DNA of 64,000 nucleotides from Escherichia coli. GTDB lineage: Bacteria > Pseudomonadota > Gammaproteobacteria > Enterobacterales > Enterobacteriaceae. A program made the translations under genes and the position numbers. The notes under the pieces were generated by a model. It was not told where the DNA came from. It did not search any database and worked only from the letters and a program-made list of their open reading frames with translations. This document shows positions 4,400 to 41,973 of this stretch, in pieces (the stretch's first letter is position 1; every line of letters starts with the position of its first letter). Location of the stretch: NCBI RefSeq assembly GCF_045037415.1, contig NZ_CP173438.1. One strand, written 5' to 3'.

Positions 4400-5872
4400 A
4401 TGTCATCGTTGCAAATTTTGCAAGGCACGTTTCGTCTTGGCGACACAAAAACGCTGCAATTGCCTCGGCTAACGTTAAACGCGGGTGATAGTTGGGCGTT
4501 TGTCGGTTCGAATGGAAGCGGGAAATCGGCGCTGGCCCGCGCGCTGTCGGGGGAACTTCCGCTTTTGAAAGGTGAACGGCAAAGCCAGTTTTCCCACATC
4601 ACTCGTCTCTCCTTCGAGCAATTGCAAAAGCTCGTCAGCGACGAATGGCAGCGGAATAACACCGATATGCTTAGTCCTGGCGAAGATGACACCGGGCGTA
4701 CCACGGCTGAGATCATTCAGGATGAAGTAAAGGATACTTCGCGTTGCATGCAACTGGCGCAGCAGTTCGGTATTACCGCCCTCCTCGACCGACGCTTTAA
4801 ATACCTTTCCACTGGCGAGACGCGAAAAACCCTGCTGTGTCAGGCGCTGATGTCGGAGCCTGACTTGTTGATCCTTGATGAACCGTTTGATGGCCTGGAT
4901 GTTGCCTCACGTCAGCATCTGGCTGAGCTACTCGCCTCGTTACATCAGTCCGGTATTACTCTGGTACTGGTGCTCAATCGCTTCGATGAGATCCCGGAAT
5001 TTGTCCAGTTTGCTGGCGTGCTGGCGGATTGCACGTTAGCGGAAACTGGCGCTAAAGAAGAACTGCTCCAACAAGCACTCGTTGCGCAACTGGCGCATAG
5101 CGAACTGCTTGAAGGTGTGCAAATGCCGGAGCCGGATGAACCTTCAGCACGTCACGCCTTACCCGCCAACGAACCGCGCATTGTGCTGAACAATGGCGTG
5201 GTTTCTTATAACGAACGCCCCATCCTTAATAACCTTAGCTGGCAGGTGAATCCAGGCGAACACTGGCAAATTGTCGGGCCAAATGGCGCGGGAAAATCGA
5301 CGTTATTAAGCCTGATTACTGGCGATCATCCGCAAGGTTACAGCAACGATTTGACGCTTTTCGGACGACGTCGCGGCAGCGGCGAAACCATCTGGGATAT
5401 CAAAAAGCATATCGGTTACGTCAGCAGTAGTTTGCATCTGGATTACCGGGTCAGCACTACTGTGCGTAATGTGATTCTTTCTGGCTATTTTGATTCGATT
5501 GGCATTTATCAGGCCGTTTCGGATCGCCAGCAAAAACTGGTGCAGCAGTGGCTGGATATTCTCGGCATTGATAAACGCACGGCTGACGCTCCTTTCCATA
5601 GTCTTTCCTGGGGACAGCAGCGTCTGGCGCTGATTGTCCGCGCACTGGTGAAACATCCGACGTTGCTTATTCTCGATGAACCACTACAGGGGCTTGATCC
5701 GCTCAATCGCCAGCTTATCCGCCGTTTTGTTGATGTGCTGATTAGCGAAGGTGAAACGCAATTGTTGTTTGTTTCGCACCACGCTGAAGATGCGCCTGCC
5801 TGTATTACCCATCGTCTTGAGTTCGTGCCGGACGGTGGACTCTATCGCTATGTGCTGACAAAAATAAATTGA
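4400..5872 (+). CDS. modF: ABC-type ATPase with two nucleotide-binding domains
   Basis: two Walker A motifs (GSNGSGKS, GPNGAGKS); start set at MSSLQIL (GGGA RBS) rather than the ORF-track ATG at 4388. Confidence 0.9.
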   Translation: MSSLQILQGTFRLGDTKTLQLPRLTLNAGDSWAFVGSNGSGKSALARALSGELPLLKGERQSQFSHITRLSFEQLQKLVSDEWQRNNTDMLSPGEDDTGRTTAEIIQDEVKDTSRCMQLAQQFGITALLDRRFKYLSTGETRKTLLCQALMSEPDLLILDEPFDGLDVASRQHLAELLASLHQSGITLVLVLNRFDEIPEFVQFAGVLADCTLAETGAKEELLQQALVAQLAHSELLEGVQMPEPDEPSARHALPANEPRIVLNNGVVSYNERPILNNLSWQVNPGEHWQIVGPNGAGKSTLLSLITGDHPQGYSNDLTLFGRRRGSGETIWDIKKHIGYVSSSLHLDYRVSTTVRNVILSGYFDSIGIYQAVSDRQQKLVQQWLDILGIDKRTADAPFHSLSWGQQRLALIVRALVKHPTLLILDEPLQGLDPLNRQLIRRFVDVLISEGETQLLFVSHHAEDAPACITHRLEFVPDGGLYRYVLTKIN

Positions 5873-20042: not shown

Positions 20043-21353
20043 TTACGGTTTGAAGTCCAATGGCGCGTTTTTGAACACTTCATATACTGCCTGGCTTGGT
20101 GGTTTCGGGATCTTCGCAAGTTTAGCTGCTGCCAACGCAGCTTGACAAAGTGCGGGATCGCCACCTTCAGGTTTGATATCCAGTAACATACCATCGGGTG
20201 CCAGTTTTATGCGCAGCGTACAGGTTTTGCCTGCATAGGACGATGCGTCATAGAACTTACTTTCGATAGCAGATTTAATCTGCCCGGCATAGTTATTGAT
20301 ATCGGCCCCTGATGCGCCATTGTTTTTAGTATTACCACTCCCGGCAGGCGAAGCATTGTTCCCTTTCGCCCCTCCCCCCGTTTTCGGTGCATTCTTACCA
20401 GAGCTTAGCTCACCGAAAATATCATCTGCCTCAGCGGCAGCTTTTGCTGCAGCGGCTTTTTCAGCTGCTGCTTTTGCCGCTGCCGCTTTTTTGTCTGCGG
20501 CGGCTTTTTCTGCCGCTGCTTTCTTATCAGCTGCTGCCTTTTCAGCAGCCGCTTTTTCTGCTGCTTTTTTGTCGGCTGCCGCTTTCTCTGCTGCCGCTTT
20601 CTTATCAGCTGCAGCCTTTTCAGCAGCCGCTTTTTCTGCTGCTTTTTTGTCGGCTGCCGCTTTCTCTGCTGCCGCTTTCTTCTCAGCTTCTGCCTTGGCT
20701 TTTTCAGCAGCTTCGGTTGCCGCTTTCTTTCTTGCTTCAGCTGCAGCTGCTTCTGCCGCTTCAGCTTTCTTCTTCAGCGCCGCAGCAGCAGCCTCGGCTT
20801 TTTTCTGCGCTTCGACTGCGGCTTTGGCGGCTTCTGCTTCTGCTTTTTTCTTCGCGTCTGCCGCCGCTTTCTTCGCTGCTTCTTCCGCAGCTTTAGCATC
20901 CGCTTCGGCCTTCGCTTTAGCATCTGCCGCCGCTTTCGCTGCCGCCTCTTCCGCTTGCTTCTGCTTTAACTCGGCCTGTTTTGCGGCTTCTTCAGCCTGC
21001 TTTTTCTGCTCCTGAGCCGCTAACCGCTCTTTCTCAAGTTGCTTCAGGCGTTCCTGTTCAGCCGCTTGTTTCTCACGCAGTTCTTCAGCAGCCTGCTGCT
21101 CTTTCATCTTGCGCTGCTCATCAGAACGCTTCGCGCTTGATTCCTGGCTTTGCATGCGTTTGTACTGCTCAACTACCGCACCTGAATCAACCATGACAGC
21201 GTCGATGGACGAACCACCGCCGCCTCCGGCTGAAGCTTCTATATTCTCATCGAACGAACTCCAGATCAGCGCCGCAAATAAGATGACATGCAGCACTGCT
21301 GAAATAATTATCGCCCGCTTGAGCTTGTCGTTTTGTTCGGTTGCCTTTGACAC
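20043..21353 (-). CDS. tolA: Tol-Pal system protein TolA
   Basis: 436 aa; N-terminal TM anchor, long Ala/Lys/Glu-rich domain II, C-terminal domain III. Confidence 0.95.
   Translation of the reverse strand: MSKATEQNDKLKRAIIISAVLHVILFAALIWSSFDENIEASAGGGGGSSIDAVMVDSGAVVEQYKRMQSQESSAKRSDEQRKMKEQQAAEELREKQAAEQERLKQLEKERLAAQEQKKQAEEAAKQAELKQKQAEEAAAKAAADAKAKAEADAKAAEEAAKKAAADAKKKAEAEAAKAAVEAQKKAEAAAAALKKKAEAAEAAAAEARKKAATEAAEKAKAEAEKKAAAEKAAADKKAAEKAAAEKAAADKKAAAEKAAADKKAAEKAAAEKAAADKKAAAEKAAADKKAAAAKAAAEKAAAAKAAAEADDIFGELSSGKNAPKTGGGAKGNNASPAGSGNTKNNGASGADINNYAGQIKSAIESKFYDASSYAGKTCTLRIKLAPDGMLLDIKPEGGDPALCQAALAAAKLAKIPKPPSQAVYEVFKNAPLDFKP
20521..20676. repeat. 78-bp tandem duplication (2 copies, 1 mismatch) inside tolA domain II
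   Basis: 20521-20598 and 20599-20676 are near-identical; in frame, each encodes a 26-aa Ala/Lys/Glu/Asp unit. Confidence 0.85.
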
Positions 21354-23513: not shown

Positions 23514-24653
23514 TTAGTACAGAGAGTGGGTGTTACGTTCAATATCTTCTTTGGTGATACGACCGAACATTTTCCAGTAACACCAGGCGGTGTAGAGCAG
23601 AATGATCGGTACCAGAACCACCGCAACCCAGGTCATGACGTTAAGCGTCAGCTGGCTGGAAGTTGCATCCCACATTGTCAGACTTGCGTTCATCATGGTG
23701 CTGGACGGCATCACAAACGGGAACATTGCGATACCGGCAGTCAGGATGATGCAGGCCAGCGTCAGGGAGGAGAAAACAAACGCCCACGCGGCTTTATCCA
23801 TACGTGCAGTCAGGATGGTCAGCAGCGGCAGAACCACACCCAGTGCCGGAATAGCCCACAGAATTGGCGTGTTGTTGAAGTTAACCAGCCATGCGCCAGC
23901 TTCACGAACCACTTCTTTATTCAGCGGGTTAGAGGCTGCGTAATGGTCCATTGTCGATTTCACGACATAACCATCGATACCGTACATCACCCATACGCCA
24001 GCCAGTGCGAAGCAGACCAGCGTCACCAGTGCCGCCACCTGAGCCGTTGCACGGGTACGCAGGTGCAGTTCGCCCACGGTACGCATTTGCAGATAGGTTG
24101 CGCCCTGAGTAATGATCATCCCTACGCTCACCACACCTGCCAGCAGGCCGAACGGGTTAAGCAGCTGGAAGAAGTTACCGGTGTAGTACAGACGCAGATA
24201 TTCATCAACGTTGAATGGTACGCCCTGCAACAGGTTACCGAACGCTACACCAATCACCAGCGGCGGAACGAAGCTACCAATGAAGATGCCCCAGTCCCAC
24301 ATGTTACGCCAGCGGGTTTCTTCAATCTTGGAGCGGTAGTCAAAACCGACCGGACGGAAGAACAAAGACGCCAGTACGAGGATCATCGCCACATAGAAGC
24401 CGGAGAACGCAGCGGCATAGACCATCGGCCAGGCAGCAAACAGTGCACCGCCTGCGGTGATCAGCCAAACCTGGTTACCGTCCCAGTGTGGTGCGATGGA
24501 GTTAATCATAATTCGACGCTCGGTGTCGTTACGACCGAGGAAACGGGTGAGCATGCCCACCCCCATGTCGAAACCGTCAGTGACTGCAAAACCAATCAGC
24601 AGAACGCCAACCAGCAGCCACCAGATAAAACGCAATACTTCATAATCGATCAT
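23514..24653 (-). CDS. cydB: cytochrome bd-I oxidase subunit II
   Basis: 379 aa polytopic membrane protein. Confidence 0.97.
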   Translation of the reverse strand: MIDYEVLRFIWWLLVGVLLIGFAVTDGFDMGVGMLTRFLGRNDTERRIMINSIAPHWDGNQVWLITAGGALFAAWPMVYAAAFSGFYVAMILVLASLFFRPVGFDYRSKIEETRWRNMWDWGIFIGSFVPPLVIGVAFGNLLQGVPFNVDEYLRLYYTGNFFQLLNPFGLLAGVVSVGMIITQGATYLQMRTVGELHLRTRATAQVAALVTLVCFALAGVWVMYGIDGYVVKSTMDHYAASNPLNKEVVREAGAWLVNFNNTPILWAIPALGVVLPLLTILTARMDKAAWAFVFSSLTLACIILTAGIAMFPFVMPSSTMMNASLTMWDATSSQLTLNVMTWVAVVLVPIILLYTAWCYWKMFGRITKEDIERNTHSLY

Positions 24654-24668
24654 TTGACGACTCCTGTC

Positions 24669-26237
24669 TTAGCGTGCCGGCTGAGTAGTCGTGGAAGACT
24701 GCTCAAAGTGATAGCGACCGGTTTTCAGGCTGCTTGGGCCGAGGCGTGCAAACTTGAACATTAAGAACAATTCTGCCACCAGGAACAGGGTATACAGGCC
24801 GCAAATCAGCACCATTGAGAAGATGAGATCGCCTGCGGTCAGTGACGAGTTCGCCACAGCTGTCGGCAGCACTTCACCGATAGCCCACGGTTGGCGGCCA
24901 TATTCAGCCACGAACCAGCCCGCTTCTACAGCAATCCACGGCAGCGGAATACCGTACAGCGCGGCGCGCAGCAGCCATTTTTTCTCGCCAATGCGGTTGC
25001 GGATGACACTCCAGAAAGAGAGCGCAATGATTGCCAGCAGCAGGAAGCCACACGCCACCATGATACGGAACGCGAAGTACAGCGGCGCTACACGCGGAAT
25101 GGAGTCTTTGGTTGCCTGTTGAATCTGAGCTTCAGTCGCATCAGCCACGTTTGGCGTATAGCGTTTCAGCAGCAGACCGTAACCGAGATCTTTCTTCATG
25201 CTATTGAACTGGTCACGAACGGCCTGGTCAGTAGAACCAGAACGCAGTTGTTCGAGCAGAGAGTACGCCTTCATCCCGTTACGAATGCGTTCTTCATGCT
25301 GCACCATCAGTTCTTTCAGACCGATAACTGGAGTATCCACGGAACGCGTTGCAATGATGCCCAGCGCGTAAGGGATCTGGATCGCAAATTTGTTCGTCTC
25401 CTCTTCCTGATCAGGAATGCCGAACAGAGTAAAGGCAGCAGGTGCAGGTTGCGTTTCCCACTCGGCTTCAATAGCAGCCAGTTTGGTTTTCTGCACGTCG
25501 CCCATTTCGTAGCCGGATTCATCACCCAGAACAATAACAGACAGAACGGCAGCCATACCGAAGCTGGCAGCGATAGCAAAGGAGCGTTTAGCGAAGGCGA
25601 AGTCACGACCTTTCAGCATATACCATGCGCTGATACCGAGGATGAACATCGCGCCAGTCACATAACCAGAAGCTACGGTGTGAACGAATTTCACCTGAGC
25701 AACCGGGTTAAGCACCAGCTCGGAGAAGCTCACCATCTCCATACGCATAGTTTCAAAGTTGAAATCGGACGCGATTGGGTTTTGCATCCAGCCGTTTGCA
25801 ACCAGAATCCACAGTGCGGACAGGTTTGAACCGAGCGCCACCAGCCAGGTGACACACATATGCTGAACTTTACCCAGACGATCCCAACCGAAGAAGAACA
25901 GACCTACAAAGGTGGATTCGAGGAAGAAGGCCATCAGACCTTCGATTGCCAGCGGCGCACCGAAGATATCCCCTACATAGTGGGAATAGTAAGACCAGTT
26001 AGTCCCGAACTGGAACTCCATGGTCAGACCGGTAGCCACACCCAGAGCAAAGTTGATACCAAACAACTTGCCCCAGAACTTGGTCATATCTTTATAAATC
26101 TGTTTGCCGGAAAGGACGTAGACCGTTTCCATAATGGCCAGCAGGAACGCCATACCGAGCGTCAGTGGCACAAAAAGGAAGTGGTACATCGCGGTCAAGG
26201 CAAACTGTAAGCGCGACAGTTCGACTATATCTAACAT
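24669..26237 (-). CDS. cydA: cytochrome bd-I oxidase subunit I
   Basis: 522 aa starting [19 protein letters not shown]. Confidence 0.97.
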
Positions 26238-26522
26238 CATGACTCCTTGCTCATCGCATGAAGACTCCGAGAGTGAACCCCGTTAGAAAGGGTCACACGC
26301 ATGCCCCAATACAAAATTATTTGCTCGCCTCTATCGTTGCCATTTCATCAAAAGAAGAAAAGACAATGATAAAAAAGTTACAAATATGTTAATGAATAAA
26401 CCAAATTTATCCCGTAATTATATTACGCTGCAAAATCCTTACAATAAACAGGTTTTTATTGAGCAAATTTGCATTTTTCGACAGTGATCAATTTATAGCG
26501 AAATTGTCACGATCCCACCAAT

Positions 26523-26536
26523 TTGATCTACAACAA
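26523..26536. promoter_or_regulatory. FNR-like half-palindrome in cydA upstream region
   Basis: TTGATCTACAACAA, partial match to TTGAT-N4-ATCAA, about 290 bp upstream of the cydA start. Confidence 0.4.
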
Positions 26537-26574
26537 TTTATCGTGTTTTGCAGATTTTTTTCAAGAATTAAAAA

Positions 26575-26588
26575 TTGATTTATATCAA
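26575..26588. promoter_or_regulatory. FNR binding site in cydA upstream region
   Basis: TTGATTTATATCAA, perfect TTGAT-N4-ATCAA, about 340 bp upstream of the cydA start. Confidence 0.6.
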
Positions 26589-27744
26589 AATCAATCAGAT
26601 ATGTTAACCGCTCGTAAATCATGAATCATTGATGGGTTTGTTGTTAATAAATTGTAGCAAAATAACACAGTAAAACTACCCACATGGAAATATATAGATA
26701 AAAAACCAGTATTTTATTTAACAGAACCGCCTTATCGACTTTTTATAATACTAGTTAGTTAGAGTAGCTACTTTGTTGCCATTTTACATAACATATTTTT
26801 ATCAACGTTAATTGATTGTTGTCTTTATGAGCAACGTACTGTAAATCCGTCACTTATTGTTTCATTGGTAATAATCACAAGAAGAAATAGATACCTTAGG
26901 TATAGTCAGATGGAACAAGGATTTTCAAAATAAATTTATATGGTATTAATATTTCCCGATCTGTATTCAATGATTCGCTCAAAGATTGAAAATCAAGAGA
27001 AATTGTTATAGCAGTGATACGAGACAACAAAACGGAATGATTGCCAGCCGTTAGAAAACACCGGACACTCTCGTGTAAAAAGCTACCCTGTCTATGGATA
27101 TAGCGATATCGACTCATCAAGCGTGGACTGAATGATATTCAGCTCCATATGGGCGGCAACCTGGAGGATAAACATGATTTCGCCGTTGGAATCAAGGTTG
27201 TTCTGCAATATCTACCAGACTGCTTCAATTTATCTGTTTTGGAAGTGCAATAATCTTAATTTAACTATTTGAAGATGATGATATTGTCAGATGCCAGAAA
27301 TTTAGTAATCTGGAGAACCGTGTCTATGATCACTAAATATTAAAGTAATAGTCGTCAGTAACACATCGAGTGATATAACGTATTGACACCTAATCATATA
27401 AAAACAGATCGTAATTAAGCAGCATAAGAATATGTCTTATTATCATTAAAATACATTCTATTTCCATCATCCTTAAGATAATAAAACAGTGAGTGATGGA
27501 TAATTTCACCCCAAAAAAAAGCAAGCATATAAAATTAAAAAACATGACTCCACTTTCATTTTTATGAAATGGCATCGTGAAGAGGCGCCAGCCAATTATA
27601 AAGATCTTGCTCCTCAAAAAATGAAACAACTCAGCCTGAGATAATATTTTTGACCGAAGTTAACATTAAAAATGGTTAATAGTTTGCGCCTCTCACACAG
27701 GTCCAGGCAACTGCGTAACAGGCAAATCAAATTTTCGTAAACAG

Positions 27745-27770
27745 TGGGCATCATCAGATGCCCACAAAAT
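27745..27770 (-). terminator. hairpin downstream of the TPR-protein gene
   Basis: perfect 9-bp stem GTGGGCATC-tgat-GATGCCCAC just 3' of the stop; weak T tract. Confidence 0.45.
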
Positions 27771-27779
27771 ACAGCTGAT

Positions 27780-28973
27780 TTACATTTTCGTCTTTACACG
27801 TGCAATAGCTTCTTCATAAGAAGGCTTATTTTTTTCCGTATACGCCAGTTGATAATGCTGCAATGCTTCAGCATTCTGGCCCGAGGTTTCATAAATTTTG
27901 GCAATGTTATAATAGGAGTTGGCGCGCGTTGTCGCCGCATTTACCCCACTCGCTAACGAGATCGCTTTACGATTTGCCCAAATTGCTTCCGCTATGTTGC
28001 CATTTTTCTGATACGCCAGACCCAGGTTACTAAATGCCTGTCCGTAATTGCCGTCTAATTCTGTTGCCTGTTGGAAGAGTTGAATGGCTTGCTCAAGTTG
28101 ACCGGTTTTATAAACAGCTTCACCTTCGCGATTATATTTTCTTGCCAGTTGAGTATCTCCACTGTTTTGCATCGCAGGCGAAGCCGGAGCTGAAGAGTCC
28201 GTCGCAGGCATTATCACAGTGGCTAAATCCCTGACGTCTAATGTGGTGCCGTTAAAATTGGCGCTGGTAACAGAGTTGATATCTTCAAACTCGCCGTTTG
28301 GATTGAGTTTAAACACGGTCCAGATGTTCCCTCGTTTTCCTGCAGGGACACTATAACTACGTACCAGGGAGCTCCCTACATAAACAAACACTTTTGCCTT
28401 ACTGGCAGAGAGATAATTACTGTTGGGCAGCCCTTTATTGCTATAGTCCTGCACGGCATAGATGTAACTTTCACCAAAATGCTTTTTGCTGATAGTGACA
28501 GTTTCTGGTCCATAGCTATCCGTATCATCAACATCCAGATTGGCATCAGTTCCCTCTTTACTATCAAAATAGATATGTCCGCCAGGGAAGATCAAATGCG
28601 AATCAAGATCAAAAGGCTTTTCGCCCCAGCTCAAAACTACACGCATGCCATCCAGATTCGTCATCACCGGACTGATAGCATAAGTCATGCCAGCGCACGG
28701 ACATTTGACCACCAGATTGGAATACCCCTCTTTTTTGACGATTAATAGAGCATCTTTATTATCAGCAAATGAAGTCCCCAAACTAATGCTGCCCGAAGTA
28801 TTTGTGATACCAGAAACAGATTGTGCACCATTGCGTTGCAGCGTCACCGATGCCCCTTCAATGCGTTTATCTTTCACTGTCGCACTTAAAATATCAATGC
28901 TTACATCGGCGGCATAAGCACCTGCATTCATGCCCAACAGCGCGAGAGCAACTGGCAAAACAATTTTCTTCAT
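27780..28973 (-). CDS. secreted protein with C-terminal TPR repeats (accessory; not in K-12 as I recall)
   Basis: 397-aa ORF; Sec signal peptide MKKIVLPVALALLGMNAGAYA; C-terminal TPR-like repeats; AGGA RBS; visibly lower GC than flanking core genes. Confidence 0.75.
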   Translation of the reverse strand: MKKIVLPVALALLGMNAGAYAADVSIDILSATVKDKRIEGASVTLQRNGAQSVSGITNTSGSISLGTSFADNKDALLIVKKEGYSNLVVKCPCAGMTYAISPVMTNLDGMRVVLSWGEKPFDLDSHLIFPGGHIYFDSKEGTDANLDVDDTDSYGPETVTISKKHFGESYIYAVQDYSNKGLPNSNYLSASKAKVFVYVGSSLVRSYSVPAGKRGNIWTVFKLNPNGEFEDINSVTSANFNGTTLDVRDLATVIMPATDSSAPASPAMQNSGDTQLARKYNREGEAVYKTGQLEQAIQLFQQATELDGNYGQAFSNLGLAYQKNGNIAEAIWANRKAISLASGVNAATTRANSYYNIAKIYETSGQNAEALQHYQLAYTEKNKPSYEEAIARVKTKM

Positions 28974-29092
28974 GTATAAATCCTTTTTTTAATGAATGTA
29001 AGGTGGAAATTTCCCAGTTATTATTATCGTGTTAAAAGGTGAAAAAAAAGAAATAAGTACACTTTTCAGATTAACACCCACTCACCTTGAAA

Positions 29093-29116
29093 CAAAAAGG
29101 CCATCCGGAGATGACC
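29093..29116 (-). terminator. rho-independent terminator of the mngAB operon
   Basis: minus strand GGTCATC-tccg-GATGGCC followed by TTTTT, 55 nt after the mngB stop. Confidence 0.6.
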
Positions 29117-29170
29117 TGAACTTTCTGAGAAACGCTGTTTTTTCATGTGGTTTGCTTTATTACACACCAT

Positions 29171-31804
29171 TCAGACTATTCGGTAGCTAAATGTCCGCGA
29201 CTGTCCCGGTAAAAAGAGAGCTAATTCTTTTAAAACCTCATTTTTTTCTGTATTAAAGCGTTCATTCATCATGGTTTCTGTACACGTCATCACCTTCCTG
29301 CTAAACGCGACGGTCGCATCACAGCTTGTCAATTCAGCCGGATTAAACAGCCGCAATATTAATTCCTGTCTGTCTTCTGCTTTTTTTAGCGCGCTGATCA
29401 GACATCCCACTGGTGGCATTTTCAGCAAACTATAGCTTTCCGGCACATTGAATTTGGCTTTATTAAGCTTCATCGCATCCCACGGGATTTTGTTATAACA
29501 CTGAACTGGCGTCAGCCATGCGCGTGCCTGCTGGGCTACACCGGCAGTTACGGGAGTACCGATATAACTAAATAAACTCAGACGACAGGAAAATGATCCG
29601 CGTAATTGTGAATCGGACACAGGCATTTTAATTCCTGAAGGACGCCCTGGCCTTAAAAGTAAATCTTCTTTTCCCAGTAATCCCACACCACGCAACAACG
29701 TAATAGCAAAGGTTTTATTCTCTTCTCCAATGACTTCAAATTCACGTAATCCTTCGCTAAAAACGGCTATGCCGTTACGCCCTTCCTGTAAGACAGCATA
29801 GTTGAGCATATTCCATACCGGAACCGGCGCTTCTTTCCAGCCTTCTTGCTGCCAGACATTCATTGCGCAATCCTTCACTGGCCGCGTCAATGAACCAAAC
29901 TGCGTATCCGCAAGAACAACATCTGTGTTAAAAGGCGTGGGAATCAATACACGAATACGGTGATCATCGGCCTGGTTATCAAGATTAATATCCGCATCAA
30001 TGCGTCTGCTGTTATGGCTAAGAGTGATCACCGTCTCCACCCCTACCCTGCCAGAACATTGCTTTGCGCGACGCTCTGACAGATTACGCGGCACCGCTAT
30101 TTCATAGCGAATTATGGCCCTACTCTGCCAGGCTTCATGAATAATATCGTATTGCGGTTTCGCATTCGCTGAGGTAATGGCCCACTCTTCTTTTGCTGGC
30201 GAATAATCATATTCATCCCCATCATCGGAACCTTCTTCAATTTGAAACACCCGGTCATAGCGCACGCCACTATCTTTATCAACCAGACGAAGTGAACCAT
30301 CCTCATTGAGTGCAATTTGCCAGAAAGCATTTTCCAGTATTCCCTCTGTTTTACTTTTTGGCGTGACCACATTGCCAAGCTGATTCGCTTCTATATAGAG
30401 CGTGCGATACCCCATAGAAGGGACAATTTGGCTGATCTGAATATCAAACTCCATAAAGGGATCATAATTGCCGTAATGAACTATTTGCCGATCAATAAGG
30501 CCGGGATCGATCTCACGGGCATGTCGAATAAAATATGGCACAGGCTGACCGCGACCGTCTCGCAAATTAAACTGGCTACCGCGCAGTCGAACAGTTGTGT
30601 TGATAACTTCTTCACGCGGCCAGGGCATCAGGTTAAACAGGACGAGTTTGTCGGCGTCGCTCTGCGGCATGTTGTCTGCTATTTTGCGCATATAGAACCG
30701 AATTAGATTATCCGCCATGTCTTCTGCCAGTTCGAAGCGGGCGACAATCTCGCGATGAACTTTATCACTGCAGCAGCAGCCGATGCTGTCATGGGCGTGG
30801 TTTTTTAAAATTTCTTTCCACATCTTCTCCAGCAAGCCGTGGTGATAATCAAAACCTAAAGTCCAGGCCAGCGTTGCCAACGGTTCCAGCAGATTAACAA
30901 TCTTATTTTCAATGCGTGCGTGGGCAATTTTGATATCCATGCGCGTGGAACCGATGGTGCGATGCACGCGCATATATTTGCCATCGATGAATTCACCTTT
31001 CAGGATGGCCAGACTTTCACGCTGCGCTTCAATCTGCTCGAATACCTCTTCAAAGCGGCTCATCACAAACTTTCGTTGAGGATAAATTTCGCGCAGTTTC
31101 TCCATCACTTCGAAGATATTTTGCTGCAAGGGCATCTGGTCATGACCATTCGGCAATAAAATTTCTTTGGTTACTGACGCTTTTTCCAGCACGTCAAAAT
31201 AACTGTCGAGGCGTTTACGTAATCCATTTTCGTCCGCAGGTAAGTACTTACCGATGGCGTAGCCCAGCGGCAGCACCTGCGCCGTCACTTCGCTACCGTC
31301 ACTGCTTTGCCACAAAAACTCGGTTTTATCAGTACCGTGGCGCTCAGAACATCCGCGCCAGAACATGGTGCGGGTAATGCCAAATCCATTGTATATATGT
31401 GGCAGTTGCCCGGACATGCCAAAGGAATCCGGTAAATAACCTATTTTCATCGGCTCGCCAAACGCGAGGCAGTCACGCATTCCGTACATCAGATTACGGA
31501 CTATGGATTCAGCAGAAACAATCGTGGTATCGGTCTGGGTATACCAGGGACCGATAATTAATTTCCCGCCCTCGACCAACTTCTTCACACGATCTTTGTT
31601 CTCCGGTTTGACAGCGAAATAATCTTCGAGGATCGCCGTTTGCCCGTCGAGTACGTAATATTTGTATTCGTTGTCCTGTTCCAGTCTGCACAGGATCTCT
31701 TCCATATTATTGACCAGCAGAATGCGAGACTCTTCTGTGGTGAAATACCACTCCCGATCCCAGTGCATATGCGGGGTGATGTGAACGCGAGATACCGCTT
31801 TCAT
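29171..31804 (-). CDS. mngB: alpha-mannosidase (GH38)
   Basis: 877 aa; position downstream of mngA. Confidence 0.93.
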
Positions 31805-31821
31805 CGTCGTTTCCTTTTTGT

Positions 31822-33792
31822 TTATGGCATTACGCCATCAGTCAGATAGTTTCCATGCTTTACCGCATGATGCCGCCAGATCAGGAGAATTGCAGTCGAG
31901 ATTGCAGCCCCCACCAACGCCGCACCAAACCAACCAATTGCCGCCATAACACCACCCGCGCCATTATCATGAAGTAAAAAGAGCGAGAAAATGCCGGCAC
32001 CGGGTGTCGAAAGGCCGATATTCATCGCACCGACGATAGCGCCCGTTACCATAGATCCCAGCACAAACGAACCAATAACCCGCAGCGGATCTTCAATCGC
32101 CATCGGGATCGCCCCTTCGGTGATACCTGCCAATCCTAACAGCCAGGTGGATTTCCCGGTTTCAATTTCAAACTCTTTAAACAGGCGCGGTGCGAGCATC
32201 GTGGAAGCGGTTACGGTAAATGCCGAAACCATTTTGACGGAGGCGAAAATGGCATACGGGCCGTAAACGCCGTTCGCCATTGCCCCCAGACAGAATGCAT
32301 AAGCGGCTTTGTTCACTGGCCCACCAAGGTCAAAGGAACACATAAAACCGAGAATGGCGCCCAACAACAGTGCGTTATTTCCTGACAGACCGTTCAGCCA
32401 GGCGGTAAGCGAGTTATTGATCCATGCGACAGGTTCCCCTACTACAAACAGCATCAGACTACCCGCCCCCAACGTACCGAGCACCGGGTAGAGATAGAAA
32501 GTCAGGAATCCGTTGAATTTACTGCTAAGACGTAGATGATTTTTCACCCAGCGCATCAGATAACCGGCTATCAATCCGCCAACGACCGCGCCGAGAAACC
32601 CGGAACCAATCATGTTGGCGGCAAGCCCTGCCGCAAAGCCTGGCGCTAACGCCGGTTTATCAGCCAGTGAATAGGCGGTATAGGCTGCGAGCACCGGTAC
32701 CATCAAAATCCCGAGCATCCCGCCGCCCAGCTTGCGGTACATCCACAACCAGGAGTTTTCTTCATTAAACAAATCTTGTAGCCCGAAGATTTGCGACAGT
32801 AATACCGCGACCGCCAGCACCGTGCCACCCGCGACAATCAGCGGCACGGCGAAAGAGATCCCGCTCAACAGTGCCTGCTTCAGCTCCGTTTTGACACTTT
32901 TCACCGGTTGCGTATCTTGCTGTACGGTACGCGTCTCATCGCTACGCTTGAGGGTAAGCGCTTGTTGAATCAACGCTTCTGCATGGCGAATCGGCTCGGC
33001 AACAGGCACAGAAAGCGCGGGAATGCCGTTAAAACGCTCGCTCTCCTTGATAGCGACTTCCGCCGCAAAAATACAGGCGGTTGCACTATTGAGTTGCTCC
33101 GCCGTTAAACGCTCTTCAATGCCGTTAGCACCTTGCTTTTCAACGTAGATATTCACGCCGAGTTTGCGTCCGGCTTTTTCCAGATATTCCGCAGCCATGT
33201 AGGTGTGAGCAATACCCGCCGGGCAGGCCGTTACGCAGACGATAGTTGGCGCATAAGAAAAAGAGGCAGTATGTTGCGCGTCCCCCTTGTCATCCAGCGC
33301 CGAGAGCAATTCATCGGGCGTCGTTGCCGACTGAATACGCGCCCTGAGCTCATCATCCGCCAGGCGCGTGGTCAGCGCGGTAAGCAGTTTCATATGCGTA
33401 GTACCTGCTTCATTGGGAGGAATGGCCAGCAATACCACTAAATCAACCGCTTCCGGGCCATCCACGCCTTCCCACTGAAGCGGCTCGCTGAGTGTGGCGA
33501 CCGCAAACGCCGCTTCTTTTACCGCAGCAGTTTTGCCATGCGGCACGGCCAGCCCTTCACCTAAGGCGGTCGGGCCGAGGCTTTCACGGCAATACACTTC
33601 TTCCAGAAATTGCTCAGTACTGGAAATTTTCCCCAGAGCAGCAAGACGTTGAGTCAACGCGTGGATGGCCTCTTCACGGCTGGTAAAGCGCACATTCAGA
33701 CACAGCGCATCGCGGTGGGTCAGAGTCGTCAGGTTCATCATGGTTCTCACTTGATCATTTTTATAGTCGCGCAAGTGTGCCTGATAAAACAA
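31822..33792 (-). CDS. mngA: PTS 2-O-alpha-mannosyl-D-glycerate EIIABC component
   Basis: 656-aa ORF with PTS EIIA/EIIB/EIIC regions; exact start uncertain. Confidence 0.88.
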
Positions 33793-33815
33793 TACATTTA
33801 CGTGATCACTTTCAC

Positions 33816-33859
33816 TTACAAGATACTATTTGTATTAAATTTGTATTATTTACAAGATG
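33816..33859. promoter_or_regulatory. candidate operator repeats in the mngR-mngA divergent promoter
   Basis: TTACAAGAT at 33816 and 33850; TTTGTATTA at 33829 and 33840. Confidence 0.4.
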
Positions 33860-33906
33860 AATTTATCGAGCATAATGGCTAAATTCGTATTAATGAGATA
33901 CTAGAA

Positions 33907-34629
33907 ATGGGACACAAACCCTTATACCGGCAGATTGCCGATCGCATTCGTGAGCAGATTACGTGCGGCGAGCTAAAACCTGGCGATGCGTTACCCACTG
34001 AATCGGCATTACAAACAGAGTTTGGCGTCAGCCGGGTTACGGTGCGCCAGGCTTTGCGCCAGTTAGTCGAGCAGCAGATCCTCGAAAGCATCCAGGGCAG
34101 CGGGACTTACGTCAAAGAAGAGCGGGTCAATTACGATATTTTTCAGTTAACCAGTTTTGATGAAAAACTGTCGGACCGTCACGTCGAAACACATAGTGAA
34201 GTCCTGATATTTGAAGTAATTCCGGCTGACAATTTTCTTCAGCAGCAGCTGCAAATTAGCGAGCAGGATCGTGTGTGGCATGTGAAGCGCGTGCGCTATC
34301 GCAAGCAAAAGCCGGTGGCGCTGGAAGAAACCTGGATGCCGCTTGCATTATTCCCGGATCTCACCTGGCAGGTCATGGAAAATTCGAAATATCACTTTAT
34401 TGAAGAAGTGAAGAAGATGGTTATCGATCGTAGCGAACAGGAGATAATTCCCCTGATGCCCACGGAAGAGATGAGCCGTCTGCTTAATATCAGCCAGACT
34501 AAGCCGATTCTTGAAAAAGTATCGCGTGGATATTTAGTTGATGGCCAGGTGTTTGAATATAGCCGCAACGCTTTTAATACTGATGACTATAAATTTACCC
34601 TGATAGCGCAGCGAAAATCGCCGCGATAA
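33907..34629 (+). CDS. mngR: GntR/HutC-family transcriptional repressor
   Basis: 240 aa; N-terminal winged HTH, C-terminal UTRA domain. Confidence 0.93.
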   Translation: MGHKPLYRQIADRIREQITCGELKPGDALPTESALQTEFGVSRVTVRQALRQLVEQQILESIQGSGTYVKEERVNYDIFQLTSFDEKLSDRHVETHSEVLIFEVIPADNFLQQQLQISEQDRVWHVKRVRYRKQKPVALEETWMPLALFPDLTWQVMENSKYHFIEEVKKMVIDRSEQEIIPLMPTEEMSRLLNISQTKPILEKVSRGYLVDGQVFEYSRNAFNTDDYKFTLIAQRKSPR

Positions 34630-34631
34630 GC

Positions 34632-34732
34632 ATAAAAAAGGCCATCATAAGATGGCCAACCATGTCGAAACCGACAGCCCTTCGCCCTTCCTGTAGGGGG
34701 AAGCGGCGAGGGCTATTTCTTATTACAGATAT
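34632..34732 (-). ncRNA. sdhX: 3'-UTR-derived sRNA region (SdhX/RybD) with intrinsic terminator
   Basis: about 100 nt after the sucD stop ending in GGCCATC-ttat-GATGGCC plus U-run on the minus strand; matches recalled SdhX locus. Confidence 0.55.
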
Positions 34733-36808: not shown

Positions 36809-36839
36809 GTAGACCGACCCCCTATCCACGTCGGTCTAC
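36809..36839 (-). other. intercistronic stem-loop between sucB and sucC
   Basis: perfect 10-bp inverted repeat GTAGACCGAC-N11-GTCGGTCTAC. Confidence 0.6.
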
Positions 36840-38093: not shown

Positions 38094-40895
38094 TTATTCG
38101 ACGTTCAGCGCGTCATTAACCAGATCTTGTTGCTGTTTCTGGTGAACGGACATATACCCTACCGCCGGAGAGGCGGAGGCCGGGCGGCCTGCATAACGCA
38201 GAGAAGCCCCAAACGGAATCACTTCACGGAAATGATGCTGGCTGCAGTACCATGCGCCCTGGTTGAGCGGCTCTTCCTGGCACCAGACAAAATCCTTGAC
38301 GTGAGCAAACTGCTGCAACACTTCCTGCATCGCTTTATGCGGGAACGGGTAGAGTTGCTCGATACGCACAATGGCGACATCGTGTTGATTGTTCTTACGA
38401 CGTTGTTCCAGCAGATCGTAATAAACCTTACCAGAACACATCACTACGCGCTTCACGCCCTTCGGATCAAGCTCGTCGATTTCACTGATGGCTGGCAGGA
38501 AGGTGCCGTTCGCCAGTTCTTCGAGGCTGGAAACCGCCAGCGGATGACGCAGCAGGGATTTCGGCGACATCACGACCAGTGGACGACGCATCCCGCGCAA
38601 CGCCTGACGACGCAGCATGTGGTAAACCTGTGCCGGGGTAGAAGGTACGCAAACCTGCATGTTTTGCTCAGCGCAAAGTTGCAGATAACGTTCCAGACGC
38701 GCGGAGGAGTGCTCCGGCCCCTGCCCTTCGTAACCGTGCGGCAGCAACATCACCAGGCCACACATCCGGCCCCATTTCTGTTCGCCAGAGGAGATGAACT
38801 GGTCGATAACCACCTGTGCACCGTTGGCGAAGTCACCGAACTGTGCTTCCCAGATGGTCAGGGTGCGTGGTTCTGCGGTGGCATAACCGTATTCAAACGC
38901 CAGTACGGCTTCTTCAGACAGTACAGAGTCCCAGACGCGGAACGCGCCCTGGCCGTTATGGATATGTTGCAGCGGCGTGTAAGTGGAACCGTTAGACTGG
39001 TTGTGGATCACCGCGTGGCGGTGGAAGAAGGTACCGCGACCGGAGTCTTCACCCGACAGGCGAACCGGAATGCCTTCGTCAACCAACGTGGCGTAAGCGA
39101 GGTTTTCCGCGCCGCCCCAGTCGAACAGTTTCTCACCGGCTGCCATCGCCTGGCGATCGCCATAAATTTTGGCAACGCGAGACTGCATTTCAACCGCTTC
39201 CGGCACCGTGCTGATGCGTTTAGCCAGTTCCTGCAGGCGCTTCATCTCAACTTTGTTCGGGTACTCTTCGTCCCATTCGTGGTTGAGGTACGGCGACCAG
39301 GTGAAAGAGTGCATGTTCATCGGACGCCACTCTGCTACAACGCAATCGCCAGCATCCAGCGCATCGCGGTACAGGTTAACCATCTCGGTGGCATCTTCCA
39401 GCGTCGCGACTTTTTCCTGCTCCAGCTTGTCAGCGTAGATTTTGCGCGGCGTCGGATGTTTTTTGATTTTCTGATACATCAGCGGCTGGGTTGCGCTCGG
39501 CTCGTCGGCTTCGTTGTGGCCGTGACGGCGGTAGCATACCAGGTCGATGAAGACATCACGTTTAAAGGTGTTACGGAAATCGAGCGCCAGACGGGTCACA
39601 AAGGCAACGGCTTCCGGATCATCCGCATTAACGTGGAAAATCGGTGCCTGAACCATCTTACCGATATCAGTACAGTACGGCGTCGAACGGGCATCCAGCG
39701 GGTTAGAGGTGGTGAAGCCAACCTGGTTGTTGATAACGATACGTACCGTACCGCCAACTTCATAACCACGCGCTTTCGACATGTTCAGGGTTTCCTGAAC
39801 TACGCCCTGCCCGGTCACTGCGGCGTCACCATGAATGGTGATTGGCAGCACTTTGTTGCTGCTCGGCTCATCAAGTCTGTCCAGACGGGCACGAACAGAA
39901 CCGATAACGACCGGGCTTACAATCTCAAGGTGAGACGGGTTAAACGCCAGCGCCAGGTGCACCAGGCCGCCATCGGTCTGGAAGTCAGACGAGAAGCCCA
40001 TGTGGTATTTCACGTCGCCCGTGCCGAGGTGTTCTTTATGTTTACCGGCAAACTCGTCGAACAAGTCTTGCGGTTTTTTACCCAGCACGTTCACCAGCAC
40101 GTTCAGACGACCACGGTGCGCCATCCCGAGAACCACTTCGCGGGTGCCGCTGTTGCCAGCGTGGCGGATCATCTCTTTAAGCATCGGGATTAACGCGTCA
40201 CCGCCTTCCAGCGAGAAGCGTTTTGCGCCAGGGAATTTTGCGCCAAGGTAACGTTCAAGGCCTTCAGCGGCGGTCAGTTCGCTTAAGAAGCGTTTTTTCT
40301 CTTCGCTATTGAAAGTCGCGCGACCAGACTCGATACGCTGTTGGATCCAGCGTTTTTCTTCGGTGCTGGTAATGTGCATATACTCGGCACCAATCGGGCC
40401 ACAGTAGGTTTGCTTGAGGGCTTCCAGCAGCTCGCCGAGTTTCATGGTTTCTTTGCCGCTGGCAAATGAACCGACGTTGAAGGTCTCCTGGAAGTCTGCT
40501 TCGGTCAGATCGTGGAAAGACGGATCCAGATCGGCCACTTTATCTTGCTGCCACAGTCCCAGCGGATCGAGATTCGCATGCTGGTGACCACGGAAGCGGT
40601 ATGCGTTAATGAGCTGCAGGACTTTAACCTGCTTCACATTGGTGTCAGGGTCGGAGATCGTTGAAGAGTAACGTGAAGCGTCTTTCGCCAGGCGGCGGAA
40701 ATATTCACGCGTTTGAGAGTGGAATTGATCCGGTTTGACTCCCGTACCAGGTAACTGCTGGAACGTCGAACGCCAGTTAGCGTCAACCGAGTCAGGATCG
40801 GTTAAGAAGTCTTCATAGAGCTGTTCTATCCAGCTCTGGTTTGCGCCAGAGAGGTAAGAAGAGTCCAACCAGGCTTTCAAAGCGCTGTTCTGCAT
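38094..40895 (-). CDS. sucA: 2-oxoglutarate dehydrogenase E1
   Basis: 933 aa starting [15 protein letters not shown]. Confidence 0.98.
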
Positions 40896-41068
40896 CGTGA
40901 TCCCTTAAGCATCTTTTTTATGCTTACTTCGCCGTGGATACTACCACGCACATTTCATATCTGATGTGCGTGCCGGGGTTCACTTGTTGCGGACTTGTCG
41001 TGTTTTCTGCGTCCGCTAAGGAACCTTTAAAAACTGTCTTAGTGTCAGGGGCAGTTTTTAAAGATTTC

Positions 41069-41255
41069 CTGCATTTCTTTTGTAGGCCGGATAAGGCATT
41101 CACGCCGCATCCGGCGCTGTTTGCCTGATGCGACGCTTGCGCGTCTTATCAGGCCTACGGTTTCTGCATTTCTTTTGTAGGCCGGATAAGGCGTTCACGC
41201 CGCATCCGGCACTGGTTGCCTGATGCGACGCTTGTGCGTCTTATCAGGCCTACGG
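41069..41255. repeat. BIME: two tandem ~95-bp copies, each a REP pair
   Basis: 41069-41163 and 41164-41258 near-identical; each holds GCCGGATAAGGCGTTCACGCCGCATCCGGC and GCCTGATGCGACGCTTGCGCGTCTTATCAGGCCTACGG. Confidence 0.85.
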
Positions 41256-41256
41256 T

Positions 41257-41973
41257 TTACGCATTACGTTGCAACAACATCGACTTGATATGGCCGATGG
41301 CGCGCGTCGGGTTCAGCCCCTTCGGACATACACTGACGCAGTTCATGATGCTGTGACAGCGGAATACACTGAATGCATCGCTCAAACCGTCGAGGCGGCT
41401 GTCAGTCTCGGTATCACGGCTATCGATCAGGAAACGATATGCCGCTAACAAGCCTGCCGGACCGATAAACTTATCGGGATTCCACCAGAAAGACGGACAA
41501 GAGGTTGAACAACATGCGCAGAGAATACATTCATACAACCCGTCGAGTTTTTCGCGCTGCTCTGGCATCTGTAAATGCTCGCGAGCTGGCGGATTTTGTC
41601 CATTATTCAACAGGTAAGGCTTAATTTTCTCATATTGCGCATAGAATTGTCCCATGTCTACCACCAAATCGCGGATCACCGGTAAACCTGGCAGCGGACG
41701 AATCACAATCTTCTTGCCCGGCTGGTTGAGTGCCGAAATCGGGGTAATACAGGCCAGACCATTCTTACCGTTCATGTTCAGACCGTCGGAACCGCACACA
41801 CCTTCACGGCAGGAGCGGCGGAACGACAGGCTGGGATCTTTCTCTTTCAGCTGAATAAGCGCATCCAGCAGCATCATGTCGCGACCTTCTTCCGCTTCCA
41901 GGGTGTAATCCTGCATACGCGGAGCATCATCAACATCCGGGTTATAGCGATAAATTGAAAACTCGAGTCTCAT
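41257..41973 (-). CDS. sdhB: succinate dehydrogenase iron-sulfur subunit
   Basis: 238 aa with Cys clusters for 2Fe-2S, 4Fe-4S and 3Fe-4S centres. Confidence 0.98.
   Translation of the reverse strand: MRLEFSIYRYNPDVDDAPRMQDYTLEAEEGRDMMLLDALIQLKEKDPSLSFRRSCREGVCGSDGLNMNGKNGLACITPISALNQPGKKIVIRPLPGLPVIRDLVVDMGQFYAQYEKIKPYLLNNGQNPPAREHLQMPEQREKLDGLYECILCACCSTSCPSFWWNPDKFIGPAGLLAAYRFLIDSRDTETDSRLDGLSDAFSVFRCHSIMNCVSVCPKGLNPTRAIGHIKSMLLQRNA

Follow-up and report, generated by a model that had tools for sequence, protein, structure and literature searches.

A divergent cydAB control region and a probable deletion scar in the AT-rich tract upstream of cydA in Escherichia coli

We analysed the 1542 nucleotides (nt) that lie directly upstream of cydA in a 64,000-nt stretch of an Escherichia coli genome (assembly GCF_045037415.1, contig NZ_CP173438.1; this whole stretch is the window hereafter). 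The tract, positions 26238 to 27779, very probably has two parts: next to cydA, a divergent allele of the cydAB control region and, farther away, what is mostly the scar of deletions at a variable chromosomal site. Rather than a new kind of element, we see in it a known regulatory region, present as an unusually divergent allele and lengthened by pseudogene debris.

The tract is the exact annotated gap between the start of cydA and the stop codon of a gene for a TPR protein. Both genes are on the minus strand, and the tract is thus 3' of the TPR gene and 5' of cydA. The cydA open reading frame (ORF) spans 24669-26240, with the RefSeq start 3 nt downstream, at 26237. The TPR gene (27780-28973, minus strand, 397 amino acids, aa) is followed by mngB at 29171-31804. 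In K-12 the gap upstream of cydA is 846 nt. An initial annotation had described the tract as very AT-rich and without credible ORFs, and both descriptions hold. Its GC content is 0.337, compared to 0.507 for the window, and this is the lowest 1.5 kb therein (mean 0.508, standard deviation 0.039 over all 1539-nt segments of the 64 kb, with the minimum starting at 26301). The longest ORFs in the tract encode 79 and 74 aa, both from TTG starts, and no credible Pfam match was found for the four longest (best E-value 0.21). Rfam 15 returned nothing in the tract even at an E-value of 1 or below, a strict terminator scan called no site in it, and the repeats in 26100-27900 are just short two-copy matches of chance size.

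The part nearest to cydA, from 26238 to about 26900 (about 660 nt; GC 0.31), is a divergent allele of the oxygen-responsive cydAB control region. In K-12, this promoter-operator region is described as having multiple promoters, the sites FNR-1 and FNR-2, ArcA sites and an involvement of H-NS (Cotter 1997, Govantes 2000, as cited in PMC3688515 and PMC3798270). We identified the following features:

26243-26248, minus strand: Shine-Dalgarno sequence of cydA, AAGGAG, invariant in 40 aligned Enterobacteriaceae leaders.
26375-26392, minus strand: predicted ArcA box 3, AAGTTACAAATATGTTAA, 20.5 bits, at the same position as the K-12 site cydA3.
26417-26444, minus strand: best sigma-70-like site, TTGTAA-16-TATAAT (10 of 12 consensus positions), within sequence that all four E. 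coli alleles conserve.
26523-26588, minus strand: core of promoter P1, with FNR-1, P1-like hexamers, FNR-2 and a putative start near 26528.
26575-26588, minus strand: FNR-1, a perfect match to the consensus.
26535-26564, minus strand: promoter P1-like hexamers, TTGAAA-18-TAAATT, just upstream of the putative start.
26523-26536, minus strand: FNR-2, one mismatch, 52 nt downstream of FNR-1.
26641-26658, minus strand: predicted ArcA box 2, TTGTTAATAAATTGTAGC, 19.2 bits, at the position of the K-12 site cydA2, in a block that varies even among B2 strains.
26788-26822, no strand assigned: predicted ArcA box 1 region, a pair of adjoining boxes (17.3 and 12.1 bits) located about 25 nt away from where the K-12 site cydA1 lies.

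The FNR pair bears out the earlier reading of the proximal part as the cydA regulatory region with FNR-type sites. FNR-1, TTGATNNNNATCAA, is the sole perfect FNR consensus in the 64 kb, and the 52-nt spacing of the pair is common to K-12. FNR has been reported at -53.5 relative to the cydAB start (PMC3688515), and we therefore place the start of promoter P1 near 26528, with the two FNR sites centred at -53.5 and -1.5. The sigma-70-like site at 26417-26444 may be a downstream cydAB promoter. All eight sigma-70-like consensus matches in 26100-27900 point in the minus direction, toward cydA, and their number is that expected from shuffled sequence.

The ArcA boxes were predicted with a matrix built from 115 published boxes (Table S3 of PMC3798270) and are predictions of sites rather than of binding. 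Three K-12 ArcA sites upstream of cydA have been mapped by chromatin immunoprecipitation sequencing, and these score 15.3, 13.0 and 20.2 bits at -152, -418 and -590 with the same matrix. The boxes predicted here score 20.5, 19.2 and 17.3 bits at -152, -418 and -565. Thus, boxes 2 and 3 are stronger than their K-12 counterparts (19.2 vs 13.0 and 20.5 vs 15.3 bits), and the regulatory layout is kept where sequence alignment with K-12 is lost.

By analogy with K-12, transcription would start at promoter P1 near 26528. Without oxygen, FNR bound at its two sites would repress this promoter, and phosphorylated ArcA at the three boxes would raise cydAB expression at low oxygen. In K-12, ArcA is thought to activate cydAB mainly by disrupting H-NS (PMC3798270). 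ArcA probably acts here, too, by displacing H-NS from the AT-rich DNA, and H-NS binding to the tract is plausible from the K-12 literature. The cydA leader of about 290 nt would then adopt a fold of two hairpins, directly 5' of the ribosome-binding site.

The window is 97-100% identical to K-12 through tolQ-cydA, 84% identical in 26182-26428, and alignment is then lost. By megablast, identity is 81% over the first 351 nt of the tract. Sensitive blastn extends the alignment to near -460 (26704) and covers only 26238-26704, in agreement with the initial annotation, which had named no obvious K-12 counterpart of the distal part. The whole tract was also compared with K-12 for colinearity, which had been named as the outcome that would speak against an insertion, and it is not colinear. 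On the other side of the tract, the 3' end of mngB is 75-82% identical to K-12, and identity returns to about 98% only at sucD, near 34666. The genes mngB, mngA and mngR (29169-34666) are far more divergent from K-12 than are the flanks, with a gradient centred on the variable site. Elsewhere in the window, other local drops in identity to K-12 occur at 20432-20681 (the tolA repeat region, 65%), 36817-36832 and 40832-41331, and at two of the three the sequence is repeat-like intergenic DNA, which K-12 also has or carries in rearranged form.

Each of the two E. coli alleles, that of the window and that of K-12, is 75-83% identical to upstream regions of Citrobacter and Enterobacter. Judging from these alignments, the two are about as far apart as either is from another genus. 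In its distal half, where ArcA site 1 lies, the K-12 allele aligns with species in which mngB or a relic of it adjoins cydA.

A search of 5426 complete E. coli genomes separates four types by how much of the tract they share:

Whole tract, at least 99% identity: 563-565 genomes, several labelled ST131, with mngRAB and the full-length TPR gene as neighbours.
26238-27584, about 94% identity: about 540-546 genomes, including CFT073, Nissle 1917 and an O18 strain, without mngRAB and with the TPR gene adjoining sucD.
26238 to about 26900, about 89-90% identity: O157:H7 and other genomes with matches at 90-95% and coverage below 80% (about 585 by subtraction, rather than by direct count), with two hypothetical genes and a methylaspartate (glm) cluster as neighbours.
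About 26238-26704, with 81% identity in the first 351 nt: 3731 K-12-type genomes, with mngB as neighbour.

Most of the tract is present in 1105 of the 5426 genomes, including those labelled ST131, CFT073 and Nissle 1917, and the CydA protein is identical across all four types. The second, B2-like type shows a 259-nt deletion of 27585-27843 (about 540-546 genomes). This deletion takes the last approximately 21 codons of the TPR gene, the hairpin that follows it and part of a relic of rtcB described below; in these strains the TPR reading frame continues into the tract, and the annotation gives the product 371 aa. Substitutions between the window and this other B2-like allele cluster in 26590-26740 and 27337-27584, where identity is 82-92%. 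Outside these blocks, the first of which covers ArcA box 2, the tract is 96-100% identical to the other B2-like allele.

The distal part, from about 26900 to 27779 (about 880 nt), reads as mostly a deletion scar rather than as cargo of a TPR insertion. This interpretation rests on short relics that we detected in comparisons with the O157:H7 and RS571 islands by sensitive blastn and by tblastn, with significance assessed from 100 dinucleotide shuffles per segment:

26904-27082, no strand: unassigned, 179 nt; similarity to the region upstream of cydA of O157/RS571 type ends at about 26878-26903.
27083-27195, plus strand: relic of glmS (methylaspartate mutase S subunit), codons approximately 69-102, 69% nt and 57% aa identity, one in-frame stop; 54 bits vs a shuffle maximum of 29.7.
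27184-27250, minus strand: relic of the 5' end of hutU (urocanate hydratase), codons 23-44, 80% nt identity, two in-frame stops; 59.7 vs 26.8 bits.
27249-27533, no strand: relic of the distal hutU-rtcB spacer, 66% identity over 295 nt, E-value 3e-23; 101 vs 36.8 bits.
27568-27613, plus strand: relic of the 3' end of rtcB, EEAPANYKDLAP, 78% nt identity; 39.7 vs 25.4 bits.
27614-27745, no strand: unassigned, found only with the full-length TPR gene.
27746-27767, minus strand: 9-bp GC-rich hairpin, starting 12 nt past the TPR stop codon; z -3.8.

The relics, which are 46-285 nt long, are not annotated in the RefSeq records. Their alignable codons number only 12-35, and the frames of the glmS and hutU relics are broken by in-frame stops. 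No credible Pfam match was found for two conceptual relic translations. In order and orientation, the relics match the intact island of RS571 at the same chromosomal site. There, the genes run from cydA through two hypothetical genes, glmS-glmL-glmE-MAL...cobO, a LysR gene and a hut operon ending in hutU to rtcB and sucD. The glmS relic also matches glmS of Citrobacter. The approximately 250 nt of spacer nearest to hutU, including the hutU start codon, are missing. An orphan hut promoter firing toward cydA was considered and rejected, given that the hutU start and about 180 nt of proximal upstream sequence are deleted. An alignment by eye of 26990-27020 with the N-terminus of GlmS was dropped, as it had no tblastn support.

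The relics suggest that an ancestor carried the methylaspartate (glm) cluster, a hut operon and rtcB at this site, as RS571 still does. Deletions would have taken nearly the whole island and spared only short pieces, now in decay, from glmS, hutU, the hutU-rtcB spacer and rtcB. They would now be adjoined by the 3' flank of the TPR gene and its terminator hairpin. The hairpin at 27746-27767 is the most structured 100-nt window of the tract and is probably the TPR terminator; its U-run is weak, and the strict scan makes no terminator call. Two IS1 insertions were identified in the distal part, at 27110-27118 (inside the glmS relic; 9-nt target duplication) and at 27765-27772 (in the TPR hairpin; 8-nt target duplication), in two otherwise identical ST131-type genomes (TUM11356 and OZ040267).

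The initial annotation had suggested that the distal part belongs to the acquired segment with the TPR gene, and, by extension, that the whole tract is foreign AT-rich DNA silenced by H-NS. We consider this improbable. It has in its favour that the TPR gene is present in only 1111 of the 5426 E. coli genomes, that 27614-27779 occurs only with the full-length TPR gene, that the tract is far AT-richer than its surroundings and its distal part absent from K-12, and that H-NS has been reported to act at K-12 cydAB (PMC3798270). However, 27083-27613 matches the glm/hut/rtcB island and nothing linked to the TPR gene, and the assignment to TPR cargo is not supported; at most 166 nt (27614-27779) travel only with the TPR gene. 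We found no ORF for an integrase or other mobility function, no flanking repeats, and no tRNA in 24000-32000 (by Rfam scan; ARAGORN was not run). The composition also counts against this view, as AT-richness upstream of cydA extends to genera lacking both the TPR gene and mngB.

Citrobacter, Enterobacter, Siccibacter and Yersinia have a GC content of 0.34-0.38 in the 600 nt that precede cydA. Such AT-richness is native to the region in several genera of Enterobacterales, and the composition of the tract is hardly a sign of foreign origin. The distal DNA stems from genes that are themselves GC-normal, and within it GC reaches 0.46-0.48 only over the glmS and rtcB coding relics. Its AT-richness would follow from much of it deriving from AT-rich spacer and unconstrained DNA; the GC content of the spacer relic is 0.28, compared to 0.32 in the intact counterpart.

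The site itself is variable well beyond E. coli. Among the matches listed by a genome scan with CydA, we examined 35 loci from other genera. The neighbour of cydA is sucD in many of these genera, mngB in Enterobacter cloacae, Lelliottia, Kluyvera and Citrobacter freundii, and a divergently transcribed glmS in several Citrobacter species and Pseudescherichia. In Enterobacter sp. BIGb0383 it is a TPR homologue (62% identity) located 689 nt from cydA. At that locus the alignment with the window is limited to the proximal approximately 370 nt, without any match to the distal DNA, which counts further against TPR cargo. In Citrobacter amalonaticus, glmS and cydA have between them a relic of the mngB C-terminus (residues 791-877, 52% aa identity), at locus coordinates 5060-5320. 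This is a second example of gene debris at the site. By these gene orders, the sucD-cydA junction is a hotspot that holds different gene sets by strain and genus. If the distal tract is not TPR cargo, it would be the remnant of a different occupant of the site. A literature search returned nothing relevant on a hotspot or a methylaspartate cluster beside cydA.

It is most likely that the distal part is non-functional. That it encodes an unannotated small RNA, as the initial annotation had entertained, or a small protein seems to us highly improbable. Eight sigma-70-like sites do point toward cydA, three of them in the distal part (27132-27159, 27299-27326 and 27439-27466), but such sites occur at chance level (8 vs 8.2 in shuffles). 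No 100-nt window between 26420 and 27500 reaches a z-score of -2, neither a terminator-like site nor an Rfam match (E-value of 1 or below) turned up, and the scans for promoters, terminators, Rfam families and structure identified no free-standing small RNA in the tract. The ORFs are short, TTG-started and without a family match, the hutU start and the proximal promoter region are deleted, and both the IS1 insertions and the 259-nt deletion are tolerated.

The relic DNA could instead have been co-opted as an upstream extension of the H-NS platform, altering silencing and de-repression of cydAB in this lineage. About 880 nt of extra DNA at GC 0.28-0.39 adjoins the region of the proposed displacement of H-NS by ArcA (PMC3798270), which speaks for the idea. 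Nevertheless, we regard it as unlikely, although less so than the two alternatives above. Both FNR sites and the three predicted ArcA boxes are confined to the first approximately 585 nt, as in alleles without the extension. Other B2-like strains vary in the distal DNA, through deletions and substitutions (about 6%), and nothing there points to constraint.

Several observations weigh against the interpretation of the tract as a control region followed by a deletion scar. In the distal part, 345 nt (26904-27082 and 27614-27779) have no match in the RS571 island, in 80 loci from other genera or in the rest of the window. The distal part is kept at no less than 99% identity in 563 genomes; this retention says little about constraint, because these genomes appear to be one clone. 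For the order of events (island deletion, arrival of the TPR gene and of mngRAB), the genome-scan matches listed include no species of Escherichia or Salmonella besides E. coli. For the control region, ArcA boxes are frequent in AT-rich DNA, with 6 matches of at least 9 bits compared to 3.1 +/- 1.8 in shuffles, and the roles given to FNR, ArcA and H-NS in the present allele are carried over from K-12.

The part of the control region closest to cydA also encodes a structured leader RNA, in which we identified two elements:

26254-26314, minus strand: leader helix P2, with an apical hairpin at 26273-26296 that covaries and a lower stem formed by UUGUAUUGGGGC and GAGUCUUCAUGCGA.
26320-26384, minus strand: leader hairpin P1, differing in sequence between E. 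coli alleles and genera, in nearly all of them one long stem-loop.

One block, at about -65 to -130, is wholly different in sequence between the allele of the window and that of K-12; in each allele it folds into a single long hairpin. When the hairpin P1 block was cut out of 37 Enterobacteriaceae sequences by sequence anchors only, and thus free of alignment, nearly all of them formed a single long hairpin (mean z -2.55, with 68% below -2; 100 dinucleotide shuffles each). RNAalifold applied to 16 closer sequences recovered two elements, hairpin P1 and a long P2. Applied to a MAFFT alignment of 40 sequences, it missed both hairpins, and the variable block was misaligned. With a covariance model, 41 of 83 sources, all of them Enterobacteriaceae, give a single match per locus, located directly 5' of cydA; the model has no match in Yersinia, Serratia, Erwinia or named Pantoea species.

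In the covariance-model alignment, 93.6% of cells are paired, compared to 84.1% in shuffles and 42-55% with slid partners. Changes on both sides occur in 22 of the 38 pairs, and there are 139 compensatory cells against 43 expected, in an alignment that was fitted by the model and whose sequences are related by phylogeny; none of 500 shuffles reaches any of these values. Every pair of hairpin P1 shows several standard pair types. The lower stem of P2 is invariant in sequence and thus neither supports nor contradicts pairing. Compared to the antisense strand, the sense strand folds more stably in 31 of the 37 sequences for hairpin P1 and in 33 of 37 for P2, which points to an RNA rather than a DNA structure. 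No Rfam family matches the leader element at an E-value of 1 or below, and no description was found in the papers searched (subscription journals were outside the search). We tentatively raise the possibility that 26254-26384 is an apparently undescribed cis-acting RNA element conserved across Enterobacteriaceae. If it is functional, the control of cytochrome bd-I by FNR, ArcA and H-NS would be joined by a layer that acts after the start of transcription, be it through mRNA stability, RNase III processing, attenuation or translation.

For the adjoining TPR protein, we identified a signal peptide, and one source names it YfaP-like (DUF2135). Its N-terminal approximately 260 aa have no Pfam match, and a protein search returned only near-identical E. 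coli copies, without new context. In the spacer between the TPR gene and mngB, 29093-29188 (minus strand) has a weak Rfam match to the Yersinia small RNA Ysr49 (26.9 bits vs a gathering score of 95; E-value 0.057), which is probably due to chance.

Cytochrome bd-I is the high-affinity oxidase of enteric bacteria at low oxygen and contributes to colonisation of the gut and host. Its regulation is known mostly from the K-12 allele. About a fifth of complete E. coli genomes carry most of the tract described here, and about 585 more, of O157 type, share the control-region allele only. Outside the binding sites, the present allele is as unlike that of K-12 as is one from another genus. If the leader element is functional, the replaced hairpin P1 and the stronger ArcA boxes could give ST131/B2 strains a microaerobic response unlike that of K-12. 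The conserved leader fold, listed in no database searched, is a concrete experimental target. The extra length of the tract would be historical debris, with no hidden gene or island boundary, and need not be chased as functional; its relics record the ancestral hut and methylaspartate pathways at the site.

Compared to known systems, the proximal part resembles the K-12 cydAB region in its position directly 5' of cydA on the same strand, its AT-richness, its perfect FNR site with a second one 52 nt downstream, and its three (here predicted) ArcA boxes at about -150, -420 and -570/-590. From about -290 to -160 the two sequences hardly differ. The proximal part differs from the K-12 region in its 81% identity over the first 351 nt and the absence of alignment beyond about -460, and in the length of the gap to the next gene (1542 vs 846 nt). 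The leader has no Rfam family, no canonical terminator after hairpin P1 and no known ligand or binding partner, unlike known structured 5' leaders. However, it shares with the structured 5' leaders of mRNAs (stabilising 5' stem-loops, RNase III sites, attenuators and riboswitch-like elements) its compensatory changes, its sense-strand specificity and its location directly 5' of the ribosome-binding site. The relics of the distal part are unlike usual pseudogene remnants in being very short (46-285 nt) and in lying between a regulatory region and an intact gene, outside a recognised island. In other respects they resemble the pseudogene remnants and deletion scars of hotspots: they are short pieces with broken frames, arranged in the order and orientation that the intact genes have at this site in other strains.

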